DNA from: Lingula anatina
Lineage: Eukaryota > Animalia > Brachiopoda
Direction of reading: 5' to 3'
DNA: 64,000 nucleotides
Assembly (NCBI GenBank): GCA_051362555.1
Contig: CM120644.1
Coordinates: 132,954-196,953, forward strand
Shown: positions 35 to 47,787 of the stretch, in pieces
Position numbering within the stretch: the stretch's first letter is position 1
Layout of the letters: each line of letters opens with the position of its first letter
Made by a program: the position numbers and the translations under genes
The notes under the pieces: generated by a model
Seen by the model: the letters and a program-made list of their open reading frames with translations, nothing else
The model's database searches: none
Told to the model about the DNA's origin: nothing

Positions 35-8674
<8,640 letters not shown>

Positions 8675-8700: not shown

Positions 8701-9095
8701 ACCGGTAAAAATAAAAGGACTCTCCATAATTTGGCCTCATTTTCGGTACGTTAGCCCACATTATAAACCGAAAGCGAAAGGGATTTCTTTTTTTCTTCCC
8801 TTTTTTATTTTATTTTAAAGAAGTCACATAATGCGATATACCTGGATCGGCTTTTTTAACACAACCTTAATCACCACGTTCGGTATATATTGTCCCTAAG
8901 CTTCCTATTTTATATTCAGTAATTGACCTTTAAACATGTAACGTTGCTTAACAGATTTAAAAGACAAAAATTGATTTTTTAAACAATTTTGTACCGTCCA
9001 GAAGCCAGGGCCGTAGCCTGAGCAAAATGCCAGGGGGGCAGTAAGCGGACACGAGAGGGCGAAGCCCCCGAGAGGGGAGGGTGTGGGAGGGGGTG

Positions 9096-9923
9096 TGTTA
9101 CTGCCAGAGCAGTGTTTTATAGATAAATCTTATTTCTTTACTTCGGACGCGCTACTCACTTGTTTGTCGCATCGGTGTTGAGTAACAATTGTTTTTAGCG
9201 CGCTTATGATAATGATGGGATAGAATGTGATTCCATGTGGAATGAGATCGGCTGATATTAAATGCTGAGACAGCCGTAATTACAAGTGTTTTTGTAACAG
9301 GAATCTGGCCCATAAGGTTAGCAATTAATTTTAAGTTATGAAAGTTCATTTAAAGATAATTGCGAGAAGATAAAATTAGTTTTCCATTGTAAACTGCAAC
9401 TTTGAGTAGCGTTAGAAATGCCGGTCTGATGTACAATGCACAGTACATGTAACACAATCACTGTGCCTTTCAGTATTGGAGTAAAGAAAGTTCAGTAAAG
9501 TGTAGTGTATTGTTTAGAAACGAGAATGTAGCTGTACTAGTTGCGAGTTAAAGATTGTTTGTTTTATGTTCGTAATCAATGTTATTTTTTAAAAGCGTAT
9601 TTTTTCCATTGTGTTAGTTGCGCCAGATGAGATTTACTACACAATCATTTAGAACCCAGTCGCTTGCATTACACTAGAATAGCCCAAAGTCGGTAAGAGT
9701 TACTTATATTTTGGAGATAAAGATAGGATAACATGCAACTGTTAAGTAAAGATGTTATTTAAGCGACTTAATAGCATTATATAAAAGAACTAGGGCAAGA
9801 ATATGAGATGATTTTCATATTTTATTTCAATTATTCTTTTCAGTTGACGGTTTAAGGTTTAATAAATCAGTAAAAACGACGCAAAGCTGTTGTTGTTGTG
9901 TGTGAGTATTGCAAGTGGCTACA
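9096..9923 (+). repeat. 5' LTR of BEL element
   Basis: TG...CA; no differences from the 3' LTR seen by eye; AATAAA at 9861. Confidence 0.95.
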
Positions 9924-10537
9924 GTCAACGACTGGGATTTGAGATAGCCCATACCAATAGTCCGCAACTAAAGCCCTGAGACGGCCCGTACCGAACAACC
10001 GAACCAAGAAGACAGAATTTATGACCTATTTCCAACCTGTGGTAACTCTAGATATCTGAGATGCCTGGAGCCAGTCAACAGCCATTATTTAGATGACCCG
10101 GCCCAGTCAAGTACTAGCAGTTACTGGTGGGACTGTAATTAAGGAAATTGAGCTAAGATCCAATCCGCAGCTTGCAATAAAGCTGAAATTGAGACTTTCT
10201 CGAGTATATGTTGACACTTGATTTCATATCCACAGATAACTATAAATACTAGTAGACCTCAGTGTAGCTGAATATATTATTGGCTATCTAAATATACATA
10301 TGATTATTAATTTATTTGTTTGTTAAAATTAAGATACTCGGCAATTTGACATGTTTGCTGTTGATGTTCAAATGTTTTAGCTAGCTTATTACTTATAGAG
10401 AAACTGACTACATTTTGAAATTTACTTGACTTGTGTAGTGTAGATAAGTTTATTTGAATCCAAATAAGTTACGCTGCCCATACCACCTGCCCCCTCCCAC
10501 CTTTCTAAGAATACCTGCTCACTGCTTGACATTAAAA

Positions 10538-13500
10538 ATGGATGCAGCTACCATTACCAAGACTCCCAGCACTAGGACAGTTCCTTCTCAGACACCAACT
10601 GACCAAGAAGTAACATTCAGAAACATATCGCCTAAAGATGATTTGAGAAGAAGACTAATTGAGGAATTAGATCCAGATGACTCCGTCAGTCAAGCCGGCT
10701 CAAACGTATCTTTTAAGGAGCGACAGTTAGAAGAAGAAGCTAGACAGGCTGCTTTGAAGGAAAGGCTGAAGTACCTTACAGCACAGCAAGAAATAGAAGA
10801 GCAACAGATACGTTTAGAGCAGAGAAGAAAGCGGCTCTTGTTAGAATCAGAACTGAATGAAAGCAAGAAAAGGGAAGAAATCTTTAGGAAAGCATTGGGA
10901 GGTGAAGATACTACTAAGAAGGAGTCAGACAGCAGCTATAGCCATGATGTTTTGAGGGCCTTAGAGAAGTTGAGCCTGAGTAGATTACCGATTCCAGAGC
11001 CACCTGTATTTGAGGGAAATTATCTAACATATGTAACATGGCGACTAGCATTCAAGACTCTAATAGAAAGCAGAAACATCCCACCCAGTGAGAGGCTGTA
11101 CTACCTAAAGAGGTACCTCAGAGGAGAAGCTAAAGAGACAGTGGATCATTTGTTTTACTTAGATTCAGAAGAGGCTTACATTGAAGCCCTTGAGATACTT
11201 GAAGATAGATATGGTGATAAATTTTTGATAGCAGAGGCTTTCAGAGACAAATTAGAAAAGTGGCCCAAGATTAACAGCAGAGACAGTAAGGGACTTAGAA
11301 AACTATCAGATTTTCTCAGGCAGTGTTTAGCAGCAACAGATCATGTAGGAGAGTTGAAGATCCTGGACGACTGTCGGGAAAATAGGAAGTTACTTCAGAA
11401 ACTACCTGAATGGATCACACGAAGATGGGCCCGAATTGTCGAAGAATCACAAGGTTTCCCAAGCTTCAAGAGGTTTGTAGAGTTTGTAAAAAAGGAATCC
11501 GACATTGTAAATAACCCTGTTATGAGACCAGCTGAAACTGCATTTAGCAAGAAAACCCCCATTTCCACCAGCCTTATGACGAAGACGAGCGATCAAGCTA
11601 TACCAACGCCTCCTGTCACGAAAAATGCCTGTACATTCTGTGAGAAAATAGGACACGACATCAGAGAATGCCGAAACTTCGAAAGAAAAACGCCACAAGA
11701 AAGAATGGAGTTTATAAAGAAAAGAGGTCTTTGCCTAAGCTGCCTTAGAAACGGTCACTTAGCCAAGGAGTGTAAAAGGAAGGAACAATGCAGTAGATGT
11801 GGTCGTAAACACCCTGCCATACTACATGGGGACTACGAAGCCCTACACCCAGAAGATCAACATGTAAGAACATTGTCAAGTACTTGCCAAGAGGGAGCTA
11901 TCAGTTCAATGACAATTCCAGTCTATGTATCTGTAGGAAATTCCGGGAATGAAATCCTGACATATGCTCTTCTAGATAGTCAAAGTGATGTTACATTCAT
12001 TAGCGATGAGTTAGCAGCCAAGCTGAATGCAGAAAGCGTACCTACAAGTATCAGGATTTCAACAGTCAACTCCAGCTATGTAGTCAAAACTTCAAAGGTT
12101 CCAGGATTGACTGTAAGAGGTTTTAACTTAACAGAAACTATAGCACTACCAACCTGTTATACAAGAGAAAACATACCATTCAACAAGAAACATGTACCTA
12201 GACCATCGGATGCAAGAAGATGGAATCATCTGCAAAATATACAGAGCCAAATTGCACCGCTCCAGAATTGCGACGCAGGTTTACTTATAGGTTACAACTG
12301 CTCTCGTGCATTGGTACCCCTTAGTGTCAGAGTAGGAGCAAACGAGGAACCCTATGGAGTACAGACACCCCTGGGATGGAGCGTCGTGGGAAGGACCGGA
12401 CGAGAAGACACAGATGAATATCACCTCAGTCACAGAGTGATGAGGAAAGAAATACAAAAGGATTTGAGAGTCGATGATAGAGGAGAAGTGACTTTTGTCC
12501 ACAGAACAAAGGTTAAAGAGACAGTAACTGAGCCAGAGATAATTCAGTTACTGGAAGCGGACTTCAGGGATGAGCACAAGTCAGAAGAGTCCTTGTCCCA
12601 GGATGACTTGAAGTTCTTAAAGAAGATGAAAGACACAATCTATCAAGACCAAGACAATTTCTATACCATGCCTCTACCATTTAGAACTGATGCCCCACAG
12701 TTGCCTGACAACATGCCCATGGCCATGAGAAGACTTGAGCATCTGAGAAAGAAATTTGCAGACAAAGAATTTGCCGCCGAATATAAGAAGTTCATGGACG
12801 CGATGATAGAAAGCGGAGAAGCTGAACCTGTTCCAGACAAAGATGTAGCTGGAGGACACAGATGGGTCGTGCCGCACCATGGAGTTTACCATAAACGTAA
12901 AGGAAAGCTCAGGGTAGTATTTGACTGCGCAGCGAGATATAAGAACATTAACCTGAATGAGAACCTCATCTCAGGTCCAGACCTCACCAACAGTCTGATA
13001 GGATGTCTCCTGAGATTCAGAGAGGGATCAGTAGCCGTTGTAGGAGACATAGAACGAATGTTTTATCGGTTCAAGGTAGACCCACGAGATCGTAACTACT
13101 TCCAGTTCCTGTGGTGGGATGGAGACCTAGAAGGCACACCTAAGCTATTTAGGATGACAGTTCACCTGTTTGGAGCTGCCAGTTCCCCTGCGTGTGCTTA
13201 CTTTGCTTTGAAACAACTGGTTGAAGACTATGGAGAAGAATTTGATGAGAAGGTTTGCTGGGTAGCTGGTAATTGCCTTTACGTAGACGACTTGTTATTA
13301 AGCATTGATTCTGCTGAGGAGGCAAAGCAGCTTATTGAAGGCGTACGTCAGCTATTTCAGAAAGCAAATATAAGACTTCACAAGTTTATTAGCAACAACC
13401 AAGAAGTTTTGGAGAGTATTCCCGTATCAGAAAGAGGGGCACAGAGCACCACTGTTGATTTGCCTTTACCTGCCACAGAGAGAGTATTGGGAATTCAGTG

Positions 13501-15859
13501 GGATACCCATAGCGACCAGCTCAGATTTCAGTTAACACTGAATGAAAGACCGATGACTAGAAGAGGAATTCTTTCGACTGTTGCCTCTGTCTATGATCCC
13601 TTGGGTTGTATAGCACCATTTATCCTATTAGGCAAACAGATACTGCAGGAGATGTGTGCGACCAAAGCCAGCTGGGATGATCCAATATCAGAAGAACTCA
13701 GACCAAGATGGGAGAAATGGCTGCGTGAATTGCCAAAGCTAGCAGAAATTCATTTATCAAGATGCTATATTCCCCAAGACTTTGGAAAAATTGTCACAGC
13801 AGAGATACACCACTTTTCGGACGCAAGTACCAGAGGATATGGCCAATGCTCCTACCTTCGAGTAGTGAATAACAAAAACGAGTGCCACTGCTGTATCATG
13901 TTGGGCAAATCTCGAGTCGCGCCACTCAAGATTACTACAATTCCGAGATTAGAGCTTACAGCAGCCACAATGTCGACCAAGATGAGTACTCTGCTGAAGT
14001 CTGAAATAACCTATGAAAACCTCAAGGAGTATTTCTGGACAGACTCCAAGATAGTGCTAGGATATTTGAAGAACAATGTAAGAAGATTTCATGTCTTCGT
14101 AGCCAACAGGATTCAGACGATTCAAAACGCTTCTGACCCTAGTCAGTGGCACTACGTGCCAACCAATGATAACCCGGCCGACCATGCTTCTAGAGGGCTG
14201 TATCCAGAGGAACTGATGGCATCAAATTGGTTTAAAGGCCCAGAATTCCTGAGAAACCCAGTTCTAAGCATGGTAGAGGAAAATCCAGAGGTTGATCCAA
14301 ATGATCCAGAGTTGAAGAAAGCAACAGTAAATGCAGTGGAGACTACAGAAAAGGCAGGAACATTTACACAGAAGTTCAATAGATTTTCATCCTGGACCAA
14401 TGCCATTACAGCAGTGACAACCATTAGAAAACGTCTACTCAAAATGGGTTCATCATTGTCTGCTGACCGACGAAAGGCAGAACTTACTATTCTTAAGCTG
14501 CTTCAGGCTGAACGGTTCCAAGACGAAATTAGGCAAATCAAAGATGGATCGCTTCCGAAGAAAAACCCTCTCTCCAAGCTGGATCCTTATATTGACGAAG
14601 AAGGAACCCTGCGAGTAGGAGGACGTCTGACACGATCCTCACTGTCTTACGAAGTACAACACCCTGTAATTTTGCCAAAGTCAGGACATATTGTAGACCT
14701 AATTGTGCGTCATTGCCATCAGAAGGTAGCCCACCAGGGAAGAGGTTTTACTCTGAATGAGATACGTTGCCAAGGGTACTATATCATTGGTATAGGCAAG
14801 ACGGTTGCTTCTGCAATACACAGATGCGTAACCTGTAGAAAAAACAGGGGCAAAAGTGAAGAACAGAGGATGTCAGATTTACCAAGGGATCGAACAGAAC
14901 CTTCACCCCCATTCAGTTACTGCGGCATTGATTGCTTTGGCCCCTTCTCTGTGAAAGAAGGTCGCCGTGAAGTTAAGCGATATGGATTGATAGTGACCTG
15001 CATGGCGTCGAGAGCAGTACACATCGAATGCCTGGATGACATGACGACAGATAGTTTCATAAATGCTTTAAGATGTGTGATAGCTTTGAGGGGTCCCATA
15101 CAGCAAATCAGATGTGATCAGGGATCAAATTTTATCGGAGCAAGAGTGCTTTTAGATAAATCACTAGAAGAGATCAAAAATGACGAGTTGAAGAAATTTA
15201 TGATTGAGAACAAGTGTGATTTTGTGTTTAACAGCCCACATTCAAGCCATATGGGAGGTGTGTGGGAGCGACACATTAGAACCATCAGAAGTATACTAGC
15301 AGCAATGTTGGAGCAACATGGTTCTCGTATTGACACAACCACCTTAAGAACCTTCCTATATGAAGTCATGGCCATTATTAACTGTCGACCTTTGACCGTA
15401 CAGAACCTACATGATCCACTTGGTCCAGAATCACTTACTGCGAACCATTTGTTGACAATGAAGCCAAAGGTAATATTGCCATTGGGAGAGTTTAGACCTG
15501 AGCACCTGTATGCAAGGCAAAGATGGCGCCAAGTACAAGTGTTAGCGGATAATTTCTGGAGTCGCTGGAGGAAGGAATACCTTCTTAATCTGCAACAACG
15601 AACAAAGTGGAATGGGAAACGAAGAAACCTAGGAGTGGGAGACATTGTTTTGCTCAAAGATGAAGGATTATACAGAGGAGACTGGCGACTTGCCAGAGTG
15701 ACAGAGGCGAGCATAGATGAGGATGGATTAGTTCGCAGAGTGAAGATTCTTTTGGGGAATCCTGATCTTTCTGCCAAAGGCATCCCCTCCTCTACGTCTA
15801 CTATATTAGAACGTCCAATCCATAAACTAGTTTTGTTGTTAGAAGGGGATAAGTTGTAA
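10538..15859 (+). CDS. BEL/Pao gag-pol polyprotein (gag, 3 Cys-His knuckles, protease, RT, RNase H, integrase)
   Basis: Uninterrupted ORF (open from 10454, first ATG 10538). Motifs: CTFC..H....C, CLSC..GH...C, CSRC..H...LH; protease ALLDSQS; RT VVFDCAA, GDIERMF, YVDD; RNase H FSDAS, TIPRLEL, WTDS, NPAD; integrase HHCC, GIDCFGP, CDQGSNF, GGVWER. Confidence 0.97.
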   Translation: MDAATITKTPSTRTVPSQTPTDQEVTFRNISPKDDLRRRLIEELDPDDSVSQAGSNVSFKERQLEEEARQAALKERLKYLTAQQEIEEQQIRLEQRRKRLLLESELNESKKREEIFRKALGGEDTTKKESDSSYSHDVLRALEKLSLSRLPIPEPPVFEGNYLTYVTWRLAFKTLIESRNIPPSERLYYLKRYLRGEAKETVDHLFYLDSEEAYIEALEILEDRYGDKFLIAEAFRDKLEKWPKINSRDSKGLRKLSDFLRQCLAATDHVGELKILDDCRENRKLLQKLPEWITRRWARIVEESQGFPSFKRFVEFVKKESDIVNNPVMRPAETAFSKKTPISTSLMTKTSDQAIPTPPVTKNACTFCEKIGHDIRECRNFERKTPQERMEFIKKRGLCLSCLRNGHLAKECKRKEQCSRCGRKHPAILHGDYEALHPEDQHVRTLSSTCQEGAISSMTIPVYVSVGNSGNEILTYALLDSQSDVTFISDELAAKLNAESVPTSIRISTVNSSYVVKTSKVPGLTVRGFNLTETIALPTCYTRENIPFNKKHVPRPSDARRWNHLQNIQSQIAPLQNCDAGLLIGYNCSRALVPLSVRVGANEEPYGVQTPLGWSVVGRTGREDTDEYHLSHRVMRKEIQKDLRVDDRGEVTFVHRTKVKETVTEPEIIQLLEADFRDEHKSEESLSQDDLKFLKKMKDTIYQDQDNFYTMPLPFRTDAPQLPDNMPMAMRRLEHLRKKFADKEFAAEYKKFMDAMIESGEAEPVPDKDVAGGHRWVVPHHGVYHKRKGKLRVVFDCAARYKNINLNENLISGPDLTNSLIGCLLRFREGSVAVVGDIERMFYRFKVDPRDRNYFQFLWWDGDLEGTPKLFRMTVHLFGAASSPACAYFALKQLVEDYGEEFDEKVCWVAGNCLYVDDLLLSIDSAEEAKQLIEGVRQLFQKANIRLHKFISNNQEVLESIPVSERGAQSTTVDLPLPATERVLGIQWDTHSDQLRFQLTLNERPMTRRGILSTVASVYDPLGCIAPFILLGKQILQEMCATKASWDDPISEELRPRWEKWLRELPKLAEIHLSRCYIPQDFGKIVTAEIHHFSDASTRGYGQCSYLRVVNNKNECHCCIMLGKSRVAPLKITTIPRLELTAATMSTKMSTLLKSEITYENLKEYFWTDSKIVLGYLKNNVRRFHVFVANRIQTIQNASDPSQWHYVPTNDNPADHASRGLYPEELMASNWFKGPEFLRNPVLSMVEENPEVDPNDPELKKATVNAVETTEKAGTFTQKFNRFSSWTNAITAVTTIRKRLLKMGSSLSADRRKAELTILKLLQAERFQDEIRQIKDGSLPKKNPLSKLDPYIDEEGTLRVGGRLTRSSLSYEVQHPVILPKSGHIVDLIVRHCHQKVAHQGRGFTLNEIRCQGYYIIGIGKTVASAIHRCVTCRKNRGKSEEQRMSDLPRDRTEPSPPFSYCGIDCFGPFSVKEGRREVKRYGLIVTCMASRAVHIECLDDMTTDSFINALRCVIALRGPIQQIRCDQGSNFIGARVLLDKSLEEIKNDELKKFMIENKCDFVFNSPHSSHMGGVWERHIRTIRSILAAMLEQHGSRIDTTTLRTFLYEVMAIINCRPLTVQNLHDPLGPESLTANHLLTMKPKVILPLGEFRPEHLYARQRWRQVQVLADNFWSRWRKEYLLNLQQRTKWNGKRRNLGVGDIVLLKDEGLYRGDWRLARVTEASIDEDGLVRRVKILLGNPDLSAKGIPSSTSTILERPIHKLVLLLEGDKL

Positions 15860-16050
15860 GTTATGAGGTTCGAGTATGGTTTTGTGATACATGATGTTCA
15901 AGAACTTATAAGTGAAGATCTAATGTTATTTGGGAGTACCAAAGCTATTGTATAGTGAGTTAATAGTTACAGTTTACCAGTTACATTGTTTCATGTGTAA
16001 GTTAGTTTTGTTTGTTTGTATAGAAAATCAATTAGATTTTGGCTGGGGAG

Positions 16051-16878
16051 TGTTACTGCCAGAGCAGTGTTTTATAGATAAATCTTATTTCTTTACTTCG
16101 GACGCGCTACTCACTTGTTTGTCGCATCGGTGTTGAGTAACAATTGTTTTTAGCGCGCTTATGATAATGATGGGATAGAATGTGATTCCATGTGGAATGA
16201 GATCGGCTGATATTAAATGCTGAGACAGCCGTAATTACAAGTGTTTTTGTAACAGGAATCTGGCCCATAAGGTTAGCAATTAATTTTAAGTTATGAAAGT
16301 TCATTTAAAGATAATTGCGAGAAGATAAAATTAGTTTTCCATTGTAAACTGCAACTTTGAGTAGCGTTAGAAATGCCGGTCTGATGTACAATGCACAGTA
16401 CATGTAACACAATCACTGTGCCTTTCAGTATTGGAGTAAAGAAAGTTCAGTAAAGTGTAGTGTATTGTTTAGAAACGAGAATGTAGCTGTACTAGTTGCG
16501 AGTTAAAGATTGTTTGTTTTATGTTCGTAATCAATGTTATTTTTTAAAAGCGTATTTTTTCCATTGTGTTAGTTGCGCCAGATGAGATTTACTACACAAT
16601 CATTTAGAACCCAGTCGCTTGCATTACACTAGAATAGCCCAAAGTCGGTAAGAGTTACTTATATTTTGGAGATAAAGATAGGATAACATGCAACTGTTAA
16701 GTAAAGATGTTATTTAAGCGACTTAATAGCATTATATAAAAGAACTAGGGCAAGAATATGAGATGATTTTCATATTTTATTTCAATTATTCTTTTCAGTT
16801 GACGGTTTAAGGTTTAATAAATCAGTAAAAACGACGCAAAGCTGTTGTTGTTGTGTGTGAGTATTGCAAGTGGCTACA
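16051..16878 (+). repeat. 3' LTR of BEL element
   Basis: Copy of 9096-9923 at offset 6955. Confidence 0.95.
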
Positions 16879-17252
16879 GGGTGTCCCCCTCCCACAGTGT
16901 GGAAAATTTTTAAAAACTGTATGTATAATACTGCATTCTGGTGCATTTTAACTGTTATTTATTGGTCAATCAGAAGTCAGAAATTGTGGGTTCATTTTGC
17001 CATAAGTACAGTCATTTTTTCAACACAACACGCCAATTGGCCTGGGGGATAGCTCCCTCAGGGAGGGTGAGCTTTTTGGCATGAACTGAGTTGGCTAAAA
17101 ACAGTGCACCTTTGTAAACAGATTGTTGATGATTGTCTAGTGGCCATGAGTGCCTTTTCTCACAGAATTGATACCAACTTTGCAATTATTTTTTTTACCT
17201 TTGCGATTATTTTTTTTGCACCCCAATTTCCAGGGGGGGGCAGCTGCCCCGC

Positions 17253-32981: not shown

Positions 32982-35900
32982 TACACACACACACACATGT
33001 GAAAAAAGGAACACAGTGCAGTCATCACTTAACTTTTTTGTTGCTTTGTAGCTATTAAATATTTCACATATATGATAATAATGATAATAATAATATTAAT
33101 ATCTGAATAAACCAGTTGTTTACAATTACAAATTCTGCTATAAGCCTGTTAGCTGTCTAAATCATGTTAGCCTATTGTTTGTGTGTGTTGTTTTCAGAGA
33201 ACCCAGACTCTGATTTAGATGCTCTGTTAGGAGAGCTGTGTCTACTGGAGACTCAACTGTCTTCTGCTCAAACAGAACTTAGCCACTCTCTGGAAACAGC
33301 TCAGCCAACTAAACACACACAGGAAAGTAAGGTGACAGTGGACTTTGATCAGCTCTTCAACTCCACTCAAGCTGAATTAGCAGAGCTGGACTCTCAGATA
33401 GAAAGCTTGACGTCAAAACCCACTGGACAATCAGAAACTAATGAGAACTTATCTGACCAATCACAGCATTGTGTGAAGAATAATGGACATGTCGGCCAAA
33501 CACATGTAGAACATATCTCTAGCCCTAAAAAGGAGGGCAGCCAATCGGGGGCTAAGTTACTATACAGTTCAGGACAAAAAGGAAGTAGTCACTATGTGAG
33601 TAGCGAACAAGAAAACAGTGGTGGTGATGGAGACTCTATTTGGGAACCGCAAACGCCTTCAACACTCACGCTTCCTGTGTCGCCAGTCTCATCTGTTACC
33701 ATGGCAACAGGTCAGCCTATCAGAGTCAGCGTATCATCTGAGGTGGAGAAGAAAGCAGAAGAGCGAGATTCTGTATTTTCTGAGGTGACGCCTTCCAATT
33801 CTAATACATCCATGGCGACCATGAGTAGTGGGTCCTCGGGTGTTCAGGTCACTCCAACAGAGGTTTGTTCTACTTTGTTGTCTTCCATTGGTACTCTTCT
33901 GATAGAGATTTATTACTTATGGTAATTACTCAATCTTTTCAATGGACAAAAAATATCAAACTTCAGATGTAATTTTATAATCACAAAATTATATTTGTAC
34001 ATAGCATTTGTGGTGCTTTACTACCTAGGATAGATTTATAAAGTGGCCTGCTTTTTAATTTTGTTGCAAACATTCAATCTGTCTAGTTCTAAGAAATCAT
34101 GACTTAAAAAATACAGTATTGGTCCTTGAAATTTACAATTTTCTTCCCATTGAAGAGATCTAGTAATTTCCATATATAATGCATGGAAAATGGATATCGG
34201 TTAAACCTTCTTATAATAACTTAATGTGAATGTTATAAAGTACAAAATGACATCAAGTAATCATAAGCTGGCTCCATGTAAGACTCTCTGAAGATGACAT
34301 AGAGGCTGGATAGTGGAGTGCTGGTCACATGATCTCATTCCGTGCTAGAAGGTCATTACTGTGTAATTGGAAGTAAATCAAATATTATTTGAGTTATGAT
34401 TAAATGATGTCATTTTGATGATACTTGTCAGGCATTGTGCATCTTTGATAATTATGTTTATTTCTTGATTTGTTCTTCATATTTGCTAGATGTTGTAATT
34501 TTTAGTTCTTGTAGCTCACTTTTATTTGGCTATCAGAATGAATGTTTTAATGATTTTTACAAATTTAATAATTTGTTTTATTTCAAGTATGGTTCAAGTT
34601 TCTGCATGTATCAATCAGTTTTGGTTTGTATTTTTCACACAGAACAGCTGACTTATAATGTGACTTATATACTGAATTTTATATCCAGAAAGAATGTTTG
34701 GGACATTTATTACCAGTGATTGGCCTAAAATATTTATATTAATTTTTAATTAACAGTTGGAAATGCATAATTAATATTAAAATGCTAACACAAAAAGCCA
34801 AGTCTACCCTCAGCAGTTGTGTGTGTGAACTGTAGGGAATTTATTCATTGTGATATTTTGCATGTCTTTCTAACTGTCCTATTGTCTTGCTCTTAACTTG
34901 ACCTTGATCTAGTTTCTCTGCATGCAAGCCTGTTTGCCACATTGGAGTTGACAAGAAATAAATAACAAATCTTGTCCACAATTCGAGAGGGAGTCAGATC
35001 TGAAATAGAATATTGCATTCAACCTGTTACCTCATGCACCTAGAAGTACAATATCAGTCCAACCTGTCTACACTACAACTGTACTCATATGTTCTATCAT
35101 AAGGTCACAGTAACAGTGTACTGGATACAAGTATAATATCAGTCCAACCTGTCTACACTACAACTGTACTCATATGTTCTATCATAAGGTCACAGTAACA
35201 GTGTACTGGATACAAGTATGATATCAGTTCAACCTGTCTACACTACAACTGTACTCATGTGTTCTATCATAAGGTCACAGTAACAGTGTACTGGATACAA
35301 GTATAATATCAGTCCAACCTGTCTACACTACAACTGTACTCATATGTTCTATCATAAGGTCACAGTAACAGTGTACTGGATACAAGTATGATATCAGTTC
35401 AACCTGTCTACACTACAACTGTACTCATATGTTCTATCATAAGGTCACAGTAACAGTGTACTGGATACAAGTATAATATCAGTCCAACCTGTCTACACTA
35501 CAACTGTACTCATATGTTCTATCATAAGGTCACAGTAACAGTGTACTGGATACAAGTATAATATCAGTCCAACCTGTCTACACTACAACTGTACTCATAT
35601 GTTCTATCATAAGGTCACAGTAACAGTGTACTGGATACAAGTATGATATCAGTTCAACCTGTCTACACTACAACTGTACTCATATGTTCTATCATAAGGT
35701 CACAGTAACAGTGTACTGGATACAAGTATAATATCAGTCCAACCTGTCTACACTACAACTGTACTCATATGTTCTATCATAAGGTCACAGTAACAGTGTA
35801 CTGGATACAAGTATAATATCAGTCCAACCTGTCTACACTACAACTGTACTCATATGTTCTATCATAAGGTCACAGTAACAGTGTACTGGATACAAGTATG

Positions 35901-40849: not shown

Positions 40850-43800
40850 AGTCTATCAAAGTGTTTAATTTATGTTTTTGTTTATTTTTTGTTTGTTTTG
40901 TTTTTTGTGTTATGTAAAAATGAGAAGAGATAACTAGTCAGAGGTCAGATTTTATGAAATAAGAAAATGTCAGGTATATGATAACTGACCTTACCTGAGC
41001 CAGGTGTAGGCAGAGAAGATGTCCTATCTTCCTGCTGTGAGAGTGTTAAAACAAAGATGTCTCCCCTGTTTCCTTAACAACTGACTGTTATAAACAGTGA
41101 TTGGTACCAAGAAAATGTTATAATACTGTGTATGTTGGTCTTCAGAGCGGCTCCTGGAGGATCACTACTTGCTGGTGGAGCACCTATTGTCTTGGTCCAG
41201 AGACTCTAAGAATAAACTGATGTTCTTACAGAGGACAGATAAATATGAGTTGTTCAGACACCCAGAGGTAACTAAAGCTGACCAGCTATCATATGTCATA
41301 TCACATAATAGGTTTATAATTCTGGTAACTAAGGCTGACCAGCTCCCATATGTCATATCACATAATAAGTTTATAATTCTGGTAACTAAGGCTGACCAGC
41401 TACCATATGTCATATCACATAATAAGTTTATAATTCTGGTAACTAAGGCTGACCAGCTACCATATGTCATATCACATAATAGGTTTATAATTCTGGTAAC
41501 TAAGGCTGACCAGCTAGCATATGTCATATCACATAATAGGTTTATAATTCTGGTAACTAAGGCTGACCAGCTATCATATGTCATATCACATAATAGGTTT
41601 ATAATTCTGGTAACTAAGGCTGACCAGCTACCATATGTCATATGTCATCAGTCCATCACGTAGTAGTTTTATATTTCTGGAAAACATACTAAATTATTTT
41701 GCAAAGAAAATAATCAGCTATGTTATTGTACCACCAGCGTAGGCGCTGGCGGTACACATGGTTTTAGTCCCGACCCGTATGTTCCGCCGGCTCCTGCGGC
41801 TCCTGCGGCTCCGCCGCCAAGTCACCGTTACCGCTTCTCCTCCTAGACGGTAAGGGCCTCCATACCCATCTCTTGGATTTAGGTCACCTATAATCTCAAC
41901 TCGTTCCACGTAAAATTTGGGCTTTGTCGGTATTGGGGTCTAGGTGTGGCACTCATTGCAATGCACCCTTGTCCAAAAATGGCAAAATTAAATGCTAATT
42001 ATCTCCCCTACAGAAGGAATTATGGGAAAAATTTCTACAGACAGCTTTCCAAAAGTCATAGGTGTAGATTTCAAATATGCCCTTGGATTTGACCTTTGAC
42101 CTTTATTTTAAGGTCAAACGGGCAAAAATTTTCAAAAAAACAAAATTTTTGCCGAAAAAAAAATTATTTGCGGTCTTATTCAGACACCACACAGACTTAA
42201 CTAATAATATTAATGGAAAGTGTTACCCTTCAGGTCATCTTTCATCTCCGTGAATTTGGGGTCAATCGGTGCATTTTCACGGGAGTAGCGGCCATAAGAT
42301 ATCGAAACTGAAAACTGTCTCTAATTCGGGAACCGTTAATGCTAGACACCCATTCTTTTTTGCATTTTGTAGAGCATGTAAAGCCCAACACTGGAGGTGG
42401 TCTCCGTTTTTTTGTATTCCATACGGTTTTCGAGTTACGCTGTATCAAAAAGTACATATTGGTGGTGAAAGCAAAATGTGCAGTACAGTAATGGATAATA
42501 AATTTTGAACTCCGGAAAAATAAAACATAAGGCTTGGCAAAGCAGACAACTTGTGGTCAAAAATGACATCATTTCATCAAATTTGAACATCTGGAACTTC
42601 AGAGCACCTCCCATTTCAAGAATTTTGACCAAAATGACCTTTTCTTTATTTTAATTAATTTTTTTTGTAGGAAATTTATGGCACATTATGGTAACTCCAA
42701 AATTATAACATTTAGTCCCTTATATCTCCAAAACTGGCAGAGATAGGTCCATAGTTACTATTGAACTTGAATAGGAAGTCATACACTGGCAATCTAAATG
42801 TGACCTTAAAATTGACCTTTGACCTACTTTTCACCATGAACTGAACTTTGCAAATTTTGCTTCCTTTTTATCTCCAAAACTGGCAGAGATAGGTCCATAG
42901 TTTCTATTGAACTTGAATAGGAAGTCATATACTGGCAATCTAAATGTGACCTTAAAATTGACCTTTGACCTACTTTTCACCATGAACTGAACTTTGCAAA
43001 TTTTGCTTCCCTTTTATCTACAAAACTGGCAGAGATAGGTCCATAGTTACTATTGAAGTTGAATAGGAAGTCATATACTGGCAATCTAAATGTGACCTTA
43101 AAATTGACCTTTGACCTACTTTTCACCATGAACTGAACTTTGCAAATTTTGCTTCCCTTTTATCTCCAAAACTGGCAGAGATAGGTCCATAGTTACTATT
43201 GAACTTGAATAGGAAGTCATATACTTGCAATCTAAATGTGACCTTAAAATTGACCTTTGACCTACTTTTCACCATGAACTGAACTTTGCAAATTTTGCTT
43301 CCTTTTATCTCCAAAACTGGCAGAGATAGGTCCATAGTTTCTATTGAACTTGAATAGGAAGTCATATACTGGCAATCTAAATGTGACCTTAAAATTGACC
43401 TTTGACCTACTTTTCACCATGAACTGAACTTTGCAAATTTTGCTTCCCTTTTATCTCCAAAACTGGCAGAGATAGGTCCATAGTTACTATTGAAGTTGAA
43501 TAGGAAGTCATATACTGGCAATCTAAATGTGACCTTAAAATTGACCTTTGACCTACTTTTCACCATGAACTGAACTTTGCATAGTTTGCTTCCCCTTTAT
43601 CTCCAAAACTGGCAGAGATAGGTCCATAGTTACTATTGAACGTGAATAGGAAGTCATATACTGGCAATCTAAGTGTGACCTTGAAATTGACCTTTGACCT
43701 ACTTATTATCATGAACTGAACTCTGCTAATTTCTTTCTCTTTTAACTCCAAACCTGGCAGAGATAGGCCCATAGTTACTATTGAAGTTGAATAGGAAGTC

Positions 43801-46800
43801 ATATACTGGCAATTTACTGTGACCTTGGAATTGACCTTTGACCTACCTTGCGATGAACTTAACTTTGATTGTACCATTTTTAGTAATATATATATTTTTT
43901 GCATATTTTGAAAATTCTTGTTGATTGCATTTTTACAGCTTGTCAAGCACAAGACTGGTGGCTGTGTTCCTTATTTTGTATATGTGGGGGTCTATATGAA
44001 TGCGCTTGCTCCAGCTGGTGGTACAATATTCGGAGGCGGTATCGCCTCTCTGATCCTCTAGTTCACTTTAAGTTATAATAATTCTTCAGAAATATACATC
44101 TTCTAATTTTGCTTAAATCAGAGTTATTACCACTGTGAGAGTCTAATATTTTGATGACCTACAATACTCCTCCATAGCTTTATGTGTTGTTGTTAGGAAT
44201 GATAATATTTCAATGACTTGCAGGACACCGTTATCTTAGAAATTAAAGCTATATTTAAATGTTATAATTGTAATTATAATAAAAAGATGGCAAAATTGTA
44301 GCTGTTGTTGGAAGAACCTATTTTATAATAGCTAAATACCTTGTAATTTTTGTGTAACTGTTTCAGGACTTCCTGCTGGTAGGTACAGCCCAGGCACAGA
44401 GCTGCTCACTGGATGAAAAAGGCAGGATTAACTTGATAAAGGTATCTTATGATCAACATTAATATGGAATGGGGTTATGACTGGTTGTTGAAGTTACATA
44501 TCTTAAAGATAGAAGCCAATTTTTTTAAATCAATATTTTCAGTGCAAAGATATAAAAACAAACAGGAACCAACCTTGAAAGTCACAAGTGATCTTTACAA
44601 TGACTTTGTCATATTACTCAGAAACCAGTAATAAATAAATATATAATGACAATTATGGTATAATATGGTTTTGCATCATCTCTTACTTTAGGAATTCTTG
44701 TCAGATTCCACGGGTACCAAAGTTCCTGAGATGGAAGGAATGATGTATATCAAGGCAGAAGGCAAAAAAGTTTGGAGGAAACACTTCTGTATCCTGAGGT
44801 CCTCTGGTATATATGTCAACTCCAAGGGAAAGAGTAAGGTTAGTTTACATTGTGTTAGCTGTGACAGCAGAAAATTATGTAAATGATGACATTCGATGAT
44901 TGTGTTAGATGTGAGTGAAAGTACATTGTGTTAGATGTGACAGCACATTGTGTTAGCTGTGGCAGTACATTATAATAGCTGTGACAGTACATAATGTTAA
45001 GGTGTTAAATGTGATAATTATGATGTAAGGTTGTGTTAGGTGTGCCAACAAATTGTGTAAGCTGTTCTTCTCTGTTTGGTTTCAGTCCTCCAAGGACCTG
45101 GTATGTTTGTGCCAGTTTGAGTATGTTGAGCTGTACACAGGACTGGACTGGAAGAAGAAGTACAGAGCTCCCACAGAGTTTGGGTTTGCTCTCAAGGTGA
45201 GGCATCAGATTGCAGTGTTTATATTTAATGAGTAAGGAGATATCTACAGGCTAGTTATAGAACTGCCCTGTGAATACATATGATTACATCAGACTGCAGA
45301 TATTCTACTTCAAAAGTGTTTATATTTAATGAGTAAGGAGATGTCTCCAAGTGAACATCAATCATATTTATTCACAGGGCAGTTCTATAACTAGCTTGAT
45401 GATATTACATTAATACGACATTATATTTGATGTTCACTTGAAGTGATAATATTTTACATACAAAATGATATACAGACACTTGCATACTACATTATATTTG
45501 ATGTTCACTTGGAGTGATAATATTTTACATACAAAATGATATACAGACACTTACTACATTATATTTGATGTTCACTTGGAGTGATAATATTTTACATACA
45601 AAATGATATACAGACACTTACATACTACATTATATTTGAGAAATCAATATCCTTATGTGTAAATAATATGTATATTCACCCGTTTTCTTCAATAAACCTT
45701 TAATTTAAATTTAAATTTAAATTATTTTGAAATGTTGTTTTTTTTTTTTTGTTTGTTTTTTTTTTTTTTTTTTTTGGTTGTTTTTCTAATAAATAGTATT
45801 GTACATCAATTTTCCAACTCTTAGCTTAATATTTCAGCATCCCCAGATTCAGAAGAAATGTAAATATATCAAATATATCTGCACAGAGGATGCAGAGACC
45901 TTAGTACGGTGGATGACAGCTATCAGGATTGCCAAGGTTAGGCCTAGGCTAGGATGATGCTGTGGTTGAGATGGTTGATTGTTTTAGATGTGACTGAACA
46001 GAATGTGCTAGCTGTGCTTGTGTTAGATATCACTGTCCTTAATGTGACAGTGGTAACTGCTTGTGGTGGGACTGTTTTGAATGTATAAGCTGTGCTATGT
46101 TGACTGTAACTGCTCTTAATGTGACAGTGGAATGCTTGTGGTGGGACCGTTTTGAATGTATAAGTTGTGCTGTGTTGACTGTAACTTTTCTGAATATGTT
46201 TACTGAGTTGCTTGGCAATTGTGACTGAATAAATTATTATTCCTGTTATTTTATTTTTGTGATTTAACAGAAAAGTAGACTGTAATCACTAACTGATATG
46301 ATTACATGTAAAGGTAAGTTTTTTCTTCAGATCTAATGCTATCATTATTTGAATATTTTCAGTTTGGCAAGCAGCTCCTGCTGAATTACAACCAGTCTGT
46401 GTCAGAGTTCAGAGACTGGAATTCCAAACTGCTGGAACTCACACCAGGCAACTACATGTTACAGCAGGTAAAGAATGAAGAGCAGAGACTTCAGGAGATC
46501 TACCAGCAGCCAGGCACTCTCCTTCGCAGTCACCGTGACAGCATCAGCTCAAAATCCTCTTCAGATTCCTCACGCTCCTCATCTAGTCATGGTAGTCATG
46601 GTGATCGAGGATCATCTTCTATGTCCTGGACGGCCTCCAGTCCCCGTTCAAGTGTCCAGTATGACCAGAGGATTTCAGCCCCGGTCAGTGTCCAGTACAG
46701 TGGTCAGAATTTAATGGACATTGAGCGGGGGTCAGTGCACATTGAAGGTGGTCCTGTGAAGCGTGACTCACATAGCAGGACATATAGTGACAGTGACCAG

Positions 46801-47787
46801 GCTCAGAGTGAGTTAAGAACAAGTAGTGCTAGGATTCCTGTGACCACTGACACCACAAGGCATCTCAATAATGTTAGTGGGGCAGCCAACAGATTACAAC
46901 AGCAACATACCAGCCACCAGGAGGAGCCAGTGACACCAGACTTCCCGCCACCGCCTCCTGACCTTAGTCTTCCATACATAGAGGGAGGATTGCCCACAGC
47001 GCCCAGCATGGATGAGCTCCCACCCCCACCACCCCCACCACCACCACCCCTGGCCACGGAGGCTGCAGGAGGGACAAGAACATCCATTCATAGTCATTTA
47101 AAGTCACAGCCCAAGCTTGCCCTCATAGCTGAGCTGAAGAAGAAATCTCCAAAAAGCAGCCCCGATTCTTCACCTCTTGGTTCAACTCATTCTTCTCCCA
47201 GGGGTTCACGTCAGGATGTTTCCACGAGGATAGGAGGAGCCACTTTACAAGAGGAGCGCGTGGTTCACCAATCAGGAGAGGCAGAGGCTGCTAGCCCAGG
47301 CCAGCCCCCACCAGTGGCTAAGAAACCCAAGGGAAAGGTGCCTCCCCCTGCTCCTGTCAGGAGAGATATCTCACCAGTGCCACCTAGCAGTGAGCAGTCA
47401 GACCAGGGAAAACCCCCGCCACCTGTCCTGCCTAAACCTAAACCCAAGGTGGCAGCAGGGGGTGGTGGAGAACCCCCTCAGTGTGGTCAGTCCTCTGTCC
47501 AGTCTGACACCAAACCACCACCCCCTGTAGCAGCCAAGGCAGCCCTCAACTCTCCCTTCATGGCTGACCTGAAGAGTGCCTTAGCACGGTCTGCTGCTGC
47601 TGCTGCTGGGAAATACCCTGGGGACAGAGTACAGACCCTGGGGAGCAGACCCCCAGCAGGGGAGGGACACAGCAATATGGAGGACCTTCCACCACCTCCA
47701 CCTGAACTGCTCCACCAGTCACCTACCCCAGGGAAGAAGAAGCCACCACCCCCACCCAAGAGGAGTGAGAAAACACAGTTGTCTTAG
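22654..47787 (+). CDS. RAPH1: MRL-family adaptor (lamellipodin/RAPH1, RIAM/APBB1IP, pico/MIG-10 ortholog): RA and PH domains plus Pro-rich tail
   Basis: Exons: 22654-22740 ([12 protein letters not shown]), 32231-32330 (FRFSIINLE; GC donor), 33198-33862 ([10 protein letters not shown]), 39884-39961 ([19 protein letters not shown]), 40649-40808 and 41146-41267 (RA), 44367-44441, 44692-44838, 45086-45196, 45838-45936 (PH), 46363-47787 (FPPPP/LPPPP EVH1 motifs; ends [17 protein letters not shown]). All phases are consistent. Invertebrates have one co-ortholog of RAPH1 and APBB1IP. Confidence 0.93.
23377..23736. mobile_element. 360-bp MITE with CAG termini
   Basis: TIRs cagacgtgctgaa / ttcagcatgtctg; flanked by TATTA on both sides (a TA TSD also fits). 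Confidence 0.7.
25305..25590. repeat. Compound (TG)n/(TA)n/(TATG)n microsatellite
   Basis: Direct inspection. Confidence 0.9.
26158..26888. repeat. 61-bp minisatellite, about 12 copies
   Basis: Unit actcagggtgtacaatatcactgggtgtggaatggaaagctgtagaactatttcctctata. Confidence 0.95.
27232..27536. mobile_element. Foldback MITE with long imperfect inverted repeats, embedded in (CT)n
   Basis: ccattcagattgagaa..gccgagtg..cctacatgaaaggaaga..aatcctgtaatggtctc pairs with gagaccattacaggatt..tcttcctttcatgtagg..cactcggc..ttctcaatctgaatgg. Confidence 0.75.
29380..29574. mobile_element. PIF/Harbinger-like MITE
   Basis: TIRs gggcctgttaagaaccaa / ttggttctgaacaggtcc; related copy at 30031-30465. Confidence 0.65.
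30006..30465. mobile_element. Second copy of the same MITE, with its left end and flank amplified 4x (83-bp unit)
   Basis: gatatcagatacactgag..gggcctgttcagaaccaag at 30006, 30089, 30172, 30255; single right TIR cttggttctgaacaagccc. Confidence 0.7.
32358..32812. repeat. 30-bp minisatellite, about 15 copies, followed by (CA)n
   Basis: Unit caggcataccctcatacacacatataccct. Confidence 0.95.
35044..36229. repeat. 85-bp minisatellite, about 14 copies
   Basis: Unit aagtataatatcagtccaacctgtctacactacaactgtactcatatgttctatcataaggtcacagtaacagtgtactggatac. Confidence 0.95.
36630..37999. repeat. 61-bp minisatellite, about 17 copies, interrupted by an L2 fragment
   Basis: Unit agttgtcagtgtggacatgggccccagctctattgagatgacaggcttgtgtgtattctaa. 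Confidence 0.95.
37106..37436 (-). mobile_element. 5'-truncated L2/CR1-group LINE 3' end
   Basis: Minus strand encodes [22 protein letters not shown] (typical L2 ORF2 C-terminus), then tgtaaggcgccttgaga...aaggcgccatataa and a (TTA)n tail. Confidence 0.8.
38352..38447 (+). CDS. Candidate alternative exon of the MRL gene (paralogous coiled-coil exon)
   Basis: tag|GTG...CCA|gtaagt, 96 nt, phase 0-0, no stop; [32 protein letters not shown]. Confidence 0.6.
41268..41645 (+). repeat. 57-bp minisatellite starting exactly at a 5' splice site, about 7 copies
   Basis: Unit gtaactaaggctgaccagctaccatatgtcatatcacataataggtttataattctg; first copy begins at donor GAG|gtaact. Confidence 0.93.
41722..44063 (-). 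mobile_element. Second Helentron/HINE-like element (inverted), about 9 internal ~121-bp repeats
   Basis: Reverse-complement homolog of 4963-6842; hairpin at 41728-41755; tandem core about 42715-43865; ends ggtatcgcctctctgatcctctagtt. Confidence 0.78.
45413..45640. repeat. About 70-bp tandem repeat, 3 copies
   Basis: acattatatttgatgttcacttggagtgataatattttacatacaaaatgatatacagacactt. Confidence 0.8.

Follow-up and report, generated by a model that had tools for sequence, protein, structure and literature searches.

A spliced intron in the long terminal repeats of a Lingula anatina BEL/Pao retrotransposon builds a predicted self-primer

Analysing a 64,000-nt window of the Lingula anatina genome, we describe a BEL/Pao retrotransposon in which splicing of an intron in the long terminal repeat (LTR) joins two exon ends into the exact complement of the bases following the 5' LTR. 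The joint occurs in RNA reads, its complementarity is in register with the LTR end, and it covaries with the post-LTR bases across related families; we regard it as a real, conserved feature. Judging from sequence patterns and from the analogy with the retrotransposon Tf1, the best explanation, and in our view a probable one, would be self-priming of reverse transcription by a primer assembled through splicing.

With less assurance, though still on the favourable side, we propose a widespread aquatic-animal BEL/Pao lineage in which the primer would exist only in the spliced 5' LTR copy while the 3' copy is held unspliced, the primer-binding site (PBS) would be rewritten at each cycle, and replication would be gated by position-specific splicing, independent of tRNA and of tRNA-fragment defence. 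If true, this would give a large lineage a third route of priming, in which the primer is put together across an exon joint. It would also explain BEL/Pao elements that appear to have no PBS and link retrotransposition to host splicing control.

Background

Self-priming has been described for Tf1/sushi elements, Tj1 and the plant elements Tcn1 and TAR (accessible portions of PMC4600332, PMC7175516 and PMC6317226). In Tf1, according to the part of PMC7175516 available, the transcript's initial 11 bases pair with the PBS, and RNase H cleaves between bases 11 and 12. For Belpaoviridae, the ICTV profile (PMC8742986) reports priming by host tRNA at an 18-nt PBS for tRNA-Arg or tRNA-Gly, and calls the replication of the family poorly understood. 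Among the matches listed in a literature search covering sources other than subscription journals, Repbase Reports and supplements, none described a splice-built primer or BEL/Pao self-priming. The accessible text of PMC8220671, PMC6934838, PMC3601003, PMC3286476 and PMC9094657 held nothing on BEL/Pao priming, and by term look-up primer, tRNA, intron and splicing were all absent from that of PMC3118150. The available portions of the Sinbad and Sailor papers (PMC554778, PMC6238403) make no mention of tRNA; "primer" does not occur in PMC6238403, and that of PMC554778 refers to laboratory primers.

Materials and methods

The window comprises positions 132,954-196,953 of the forward strand of CM120644.1 (assembly GCA_051362555.1), and window coordinates are used throughout. 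Chance complementarity was evaluated by substituting each internal 20-mer for the post-LTR sequence. Six RNA runs labelled as the same species were mapped on the LTR, 6-25% of each run being read; LTR reads are not assignable to 5', 3' or solo LTRs. Folding was computed with ViennaRNA at equilibrium on the letters of the window copy only, chaperoned annealing lying outside the model. Relatives were searched with an RT-RNase H alignment built with 31 of the 120 listed homologues, retrieving 13 loci from prokaryotic genome bins and 79 from metagenomes (best 80 of 558 kept); no relative was retrieved from viral contigs.

Results

An intact BEL/Pao element with a non-tRNA primer-binding site

The element occupies positions 9096-16878 of the plus strand and, as read from its sequence, is a recent, intact insertion. 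Its features are as follows.

9091-9095, unstranded: left target-site duplication, 5 bp, identical to the five bases at 16879-16883
9096-9923, plus strand: 5' LTR, 828 bp, TG..CA, identical to 16051-16878
9317-9617, plus strand: candidate upstream LTR intron, 301 nt, GT..AG, with two joined reads in RNA run X17 and loose ends at 9616
9655-9666, plus strand: second, imperfect complement of 9926-9936, with predicted pairing to 9929-9936 in the window copy
9688-9692, plus strand: 5' half of the predicted primer, closing the upstream exon; complement of 9929-9933
9693-9843, plus strand: spliceosomal-type intron, 151 nt, splitting the predicted primer; joint found in RNA reads
9844-9848, plus strand: 3' half of the predicted primer, complement of 9924-9928; predicted cut after 9848
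9861-9866, plus strand: candidate polyadenylation signal AATAAA, 17 nt past the acceptor, identified from sequence
9924-9933, plus strand: predicted PBS of non-tRNA type, starting at +1 after the LTR and exactly complementary to the joint
10448-15859, plus strand: single gag-pol frame, 1803 codons from stop to stop, first ATG at 10538
16041-16050, plus strand: polypurine tract, directly abutting the 3' LTR
16051-16878, plus strand: 3' LTR, 828 bp, identical to the 5' LTR, with the intron copy at 16648-16798
16879-16883, unstranded: right target-site duplication, 5 bp, matching 9091-9095

The gag-pol frame contains Pfam-type domains DUF1759, RVT_1, Peptidase_A17, zf-H2C2, rve and DUF5641, in the order protease, RT, RNase H and integrase with Pao-type domains, as in BEL/Pao. 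Its translation holds LLDS, YVDD and DAS motifs and a triple Cys-His box in Gag, whose three Cys/His knuckles follow the pattern given in the accessible part of PMC554778. Among the 120 listed homologues, the closest named proteins are those of fishes, Priapulus, a hemichordate, a sea star, Lingula and a coral.

These protein features place the element in BEL/Pao, and it departs from the description of the family in its PBS. As in Belpaoviridae (PMC8742986), there is a single gag-pol frame with this domain order and Pao-type domains, an LTR size within 0.2-1.2 kb, a polypurine tract and a target duplication. By contrast, neither the window element nor 11 relatives possess a tRNA-type site: none of these 12 families begins with TGG after the LTR, where an 18-nt site for tRNA-Arg or tRNA-Gly would be expected. 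The first-pass annotation had likewise seen a BEL element lacking a tRNA-type PBS, and its coordinates for the LTRs, intron, joint and PBS were all correct. No tRNA gene lies within the 64-kb window, and an Rfam scan of the window returned a single weak match (E 0.8), outside the element.

The exon joint is an exact complement of the post-LTR bases

Once joined, positions 9688-9692 and 9844-9848 form the exact reverse complement of 9924-9933 (10 nt), with the 3' end of the joint pairing to the first base past the LTR. The intron between them runs from GT to AG, with a pyrimidine-rich acceptor. In the same register, the longest contiguous match in unspliced RNA is 6 nt, as had been noted from the sequence, though a bulged duplex with the acceptor region is still possible there (-14.2 kcal/mol), so that 6 nt understates what unspliced RNA can offer. 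When every GT and AG of the LTR was admitted as a splice site, 28 of 3036 control 20-mers (taken at every second position), about 1%, reached at least 10 nt; with consensus-like sites (four donors, three acceptors), none of 6071 reached 10 and the best was 7.

The predicted joint is spliced in RNA

Splicing at exactly 9692|9844, predicted from the sequence alone, was found in two of the six RNA runs, belonging to two studies. X17 contained six reads with the joint, from five starts (151 nt skipped, GT..AG), all six oriented as sense RNA would be in most stranded libraries; X20 contributed two reads, originating from a variant copy. The joint was not listed in X14, X15 and X18, with zero depth over the acceptor, nor in X19, with a depth of 2-8 there and a listing threshold of three reads. 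DNA contigs of X3 and X5 span the region and the joint is in neither, but because rare variants are lost from contigs, the joined reads might still stem from an intron-less genomic copy. RNA of X17 mostly retains the intron, with six joined reads against a depth of ~39 just inside the donor and ~9 near the acceptor. At the low depth available, neither RNA nor DNA runs displayed a pile-up of read starts or ends, and no cut RNA end or RNA-DNA junction was seen.

Since the joined reads extend up to 62 bases on their shorter side, at least some RNAs start well upstream. Two joined X17 reads point to the upstream intron at 9317-9617, as do loose ends at 9616 (X19 and one X5 contig); these reads imply that some RNAs start before 9316, and such RNAs may be host read-through transcripts. 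In X19 the acceptor of this upstream intron apparently takes splicing from varied upstream sequences, and one contig of X5, a set guessed to be DNA, carries 9317-9617 in joined form. A 7-nt tandem duplication (9849-9862) immediately follows the predicted cut, and the joined reads of X20 come from a copy with one unit.

Allelic variation and predicted folding

No variant is listed in the ten paired bases, on either side, across the six RNA and two DNA runs. Position 9934 is A in RNA reads (8/8 in X17, 2/2 in X20, 6/6 in X19) and in every covering DNA contig of X5 and X3, the G of the window copy being rare. A bulged extension of the pairing between CCC at 9683-9685 and GGG, suggested by the first-pass annotation, rests on this rare G and is not conserved in the family. 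The second complement that it had pointed out at 9655-9666 is present and predicted to pair in the window copy, but is mismatched with the PBS side in the common haplotype, where 9657 is mostly C; the T that would restore this pairing is the minority state (4/4 in X20, 3/13 in X19, 0/33 in X17 and 148 of a depth of 929 in X3). As 9934 is mostly A, both the CCC/GGG extension and the 9655 complement are ruled out as conserved features, and 9655-9666 is probably a competitor or a relic rather than a primer.

Predicted duplex energies were -19.4 kcal/mol for the joint, -20.3 kcal/mol for the 9655 stretch and -14.2 kcal/mol for the unspliced, bulged acceptor region. In the ViennaRNA fold of the spliced RNA of the window copy, the joint/PBS helix is not formed; instead, 9655-9662 pairs with 9929-9936 (p 0.45-0.98) together with 9916-9919 with 9924-9927, or local hairpins form. 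The competing 9655 helix is strengthened by the rare 9934 allele. The modelled fold of the window copy does not support self-priming by the spliced joint and counts against it.

Joint and PBS covary among relatives

In 11 related families the LTR end could be fixed independently, where the 5' and 3' copies diverge. Nine of them display an exact match of 11-14 bases between a canonical GT..AG joint and the post-LTR bases, across introns of 78-536 nt, a length that random coding 30-mers reached in 0-11 of 600 cases per family. The other two are L005, with 10 of 11 bases matching and one mismatch (by eye), and L067, with a contiguous match of 10 bases and no intron. The matching letters vary among families, each post-LTR sequence fitting its own joint when compared by eye, so the complementarity that the first-pass annotation had made a condition of its model recurs in the relatives with different letters. 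L007 and L008, sister families at 87% protein identity, are unlike each other at two of the three exon-end bases, and the PBS bases opposite these differ accordingly. Match length is mostly 11. In five of the ten exact-match families it begins at +1 after the LTR, and in the remaining five, all from one subclade, at +2 to +5; a polyadenylation signal lies 8-104 nt past the acceptor in all ten.

A blind scan of upstream regions recovered the pattern in 15 of 59 loci, compared with 2 of 118 controls made by reversing or reverse-complementing the sequences, and a looser scan in 32 of 63 compared with 11 of 126, the non-matches including contigs not individually confirmed to contain an LTR. The match of L030 in the first scan was rejected as false, and that of L022 is weak; L030 has a changed first PBS base. 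In the looser scan, the top rows for L008, L009, L046 and L077 were judged wrong or unrelated. L057 contains an LTR start and no match. L069 and L074 were left out of the 12-family count because their repeats are not LTR ends, as was L076, whose end was unclear and which was later read by eye as intron-less. After curation, 20 families besides the window element carry an exact split match, the LTR end being deduced from the pattern itself in 11 of these 20 and L022 being a weak case. As the families are related, such counts do not represent independent events.

Several side observations accompany these alignments. Almost all families have AC as the last two bases of the predicted primer, facing a PBS-initial GT, which may reflect a constraint on the cut site or on the integrase end. 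By eye, L007, L008, L038, L058 and L089 have a second short helix past a bulge. L009 contains an 18-bp perfect inverted repeat ~1290 nt upstream of its coding region, which came up in the looser scan. L001-L013 consist of animal BEL/Pao coding sequence inside bacterial genome bins, probably host DNA contamination.

Phylogenetic spread and intron-less forms

In a tree of 76 rows, holding no named reference anchor and leaving out L005 (short alignment), the 21 split families are spread over the whole sampled diversity. The 24 signature-bearing rows share 40-87% identity in RT-RNase H, with a median of 50%. Three families, L067, L076 and L089, are intron-less and carry the complement as one stretch; they fall at two places within one subclade that also contains split families. 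Because these three keep a contiguous complement, the pairing outlives the intron. Within DNA contigs, precisely intron-less LTR copies were found for the 3' LTR of L024 (compared with L032) and the 5' LTR of L088 (compared with its own 3' LTR); on sequence grounds they suggest that spliced RNA gets reverse-transcribed, collapsed assembly of different copies being a possible cause. The existence of intron-less families and LTR copies indicates that the lineage does not strictly depend on splicing. The idea of a "splicing-licensed" self-primer thus holds for the splice and the conserved joint/PBS match, and is too strong as a rule.

The subclade formed by L007, L008, L067, L076, L077, L081, L088 and L089 has a spacer of 2-4 bases from the LTR end to the GT of the PBS. 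The polypurine tracts of L007, L008, L076, L077 and L081 are unlike those of the zero-spacer families.

Discussion

A proposed replication cycle

In the cycle that we propose, transcription would start upstream of 9688, as the joined reads suggest, and the spliceosome removes intron 9693-9843, the step seen in RNA. The joint would then anneal to 9924-9933 in the particle, probably helped by the Gag nucleocapsid, and, by analogy with Tf1, the RNase H of the element would cut the RNA after 9848 and the primer would be extended. The resulting short cDNA would copy 9923 back to 9849 and jump to the identical stretch located before the poly(A) site in the 3' LTR. The 3' copy would usually be kept unspliced in the RNA, so that both new LTRs regain the intron; we infer this from the presence of the intron in both LTRs, the rare intron-less copies representing leakage. 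Competition from the nearby poly(A) signal is our guess as to how the 3' copy would escape splicing. Finally, at each cycle the primer sequence would be written back to the PBS during plus-strand synthesis, since the plus-strand cDNA of Tf1 ends in PBS sequence (accessible part of PMC7175516). Such rewriting would preserve the match between joint and PBS through mutation and would account for the clean covariation. The scheme creates a new problem, namely how one RNA splices the intron of its 5' repeat yet keeps the identical intron of its 3' repeat, and makes the question testable at a named base, 9848/9849.

Alternative explanations

The pairing might instead be a structural switch, acting in packaging, in dimerisation or in hiding the 5' poly(A) signal, with reverse transcription started by some other primer. 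This would fit the position of the poly(A) signal, which lies inside the loop closed by the pairing in 10/10 exact-match families, and cleavage is not among our observations. However, the match sits at +1 (5/10) or +2 to +5 (5/10), where a primer must end, its length is mostly 11, as in Tf1, and no alternative primer site is evident; we consider a switch improbable. Self-priming could also proceed from unspliced RNA, through the bulged acceptor region or the 9655-9666 stretch, as intron-retaining RNA is abundant, the two duplexes (-14.2 and -20.3 kcal/mol) may be set against that of the joint (-19.4 kcal/mol), and the fold favours the 9655 helix. Yet that stretch falls short of the LTR end by two bases and contains a mismatch in the common haplotype, and in relatives the PBS varies together with the exon bases before the donor, which lie 78-536 nt from the acceptor, a pattern that an unspliced primer leaves unexplained; this reading appears quite improbable.

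Priming by a host tRNA fragment or another small RNA, the LTR match being secondary, would agree with the tRNA-primed status given to the family in the ICTV profile (PMC8742986) and with the half-tRNA primers known in Ty1/copia lineages (accessible part of PMC6317226). It would face 12 of 12 families without a TGG start, and the family-specific matches between post-LTR bases and joints would demand many host RNAs and equally many coincidences, which makes it very unlikely. Chance complementarity gains something from the ~1% of controls (28/3036) that reach 10 nt when any GT and AG are allowed, but splicing in RNA takes place at the predicted joint, which also recurs in 9/11 relatives; we regard chance as extremely improbable. 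Self-priming by the spliced joint is the reading that we retain.

Comparison with known elements

Like Tf1 and Tf2 of Schizosaccharomyces pombe, Tj1 and the Tf1/sushi elements, for which the accessible literature describes no tRNA site and a PBS of ~11 bases complementary to their own LTR RNA, the BEL/Pao families studied here have a self-complementary PBS of 10-14 bases, in their case after splicing. The Tf1 primer, in the portions of the sources available, is the contiguous 5' end of the transcript, whereas here it is split by an intron (six contiguous bases in DNA) and probably internal. Moreover, Tf1/sushi elements are Ty3/gypsy chromoviruses, whereas the window element is BEL/Pao by its domains: it works like Tf1 without being a member of that group. 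For the plant elements Tcn1 (gypsy) and TAR (copia), self-priming was likewise predicted from sequence, in an account whose accessible part mentions neither BEL/Pao nor an intron-split primer (PMC6317226). With the Sinbad/Sailor BEL/Pao elements, as presented in the available text of PMC554778 and PMC6238403, our element shares an occurrence in aquatic animals, the triple Cys-His box, YVDD, DAS and the lack of env, a likeness based on shared features rather than on a phylogeny with named reference elements. With the signature, LTR ends, introns and primer sites of such elements can also be located by a simple rule.

Other features of the window

Outside the element, the open frames at 46318-47787 (489 codons) and 33161-33925 (254 codons) had no Pfam match. 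A repeat family with a 146-bp unit occurs as inverted copies at 4963-6835 and 41728-44063, ~36 kb apart, set amid many minisatellite arrays.
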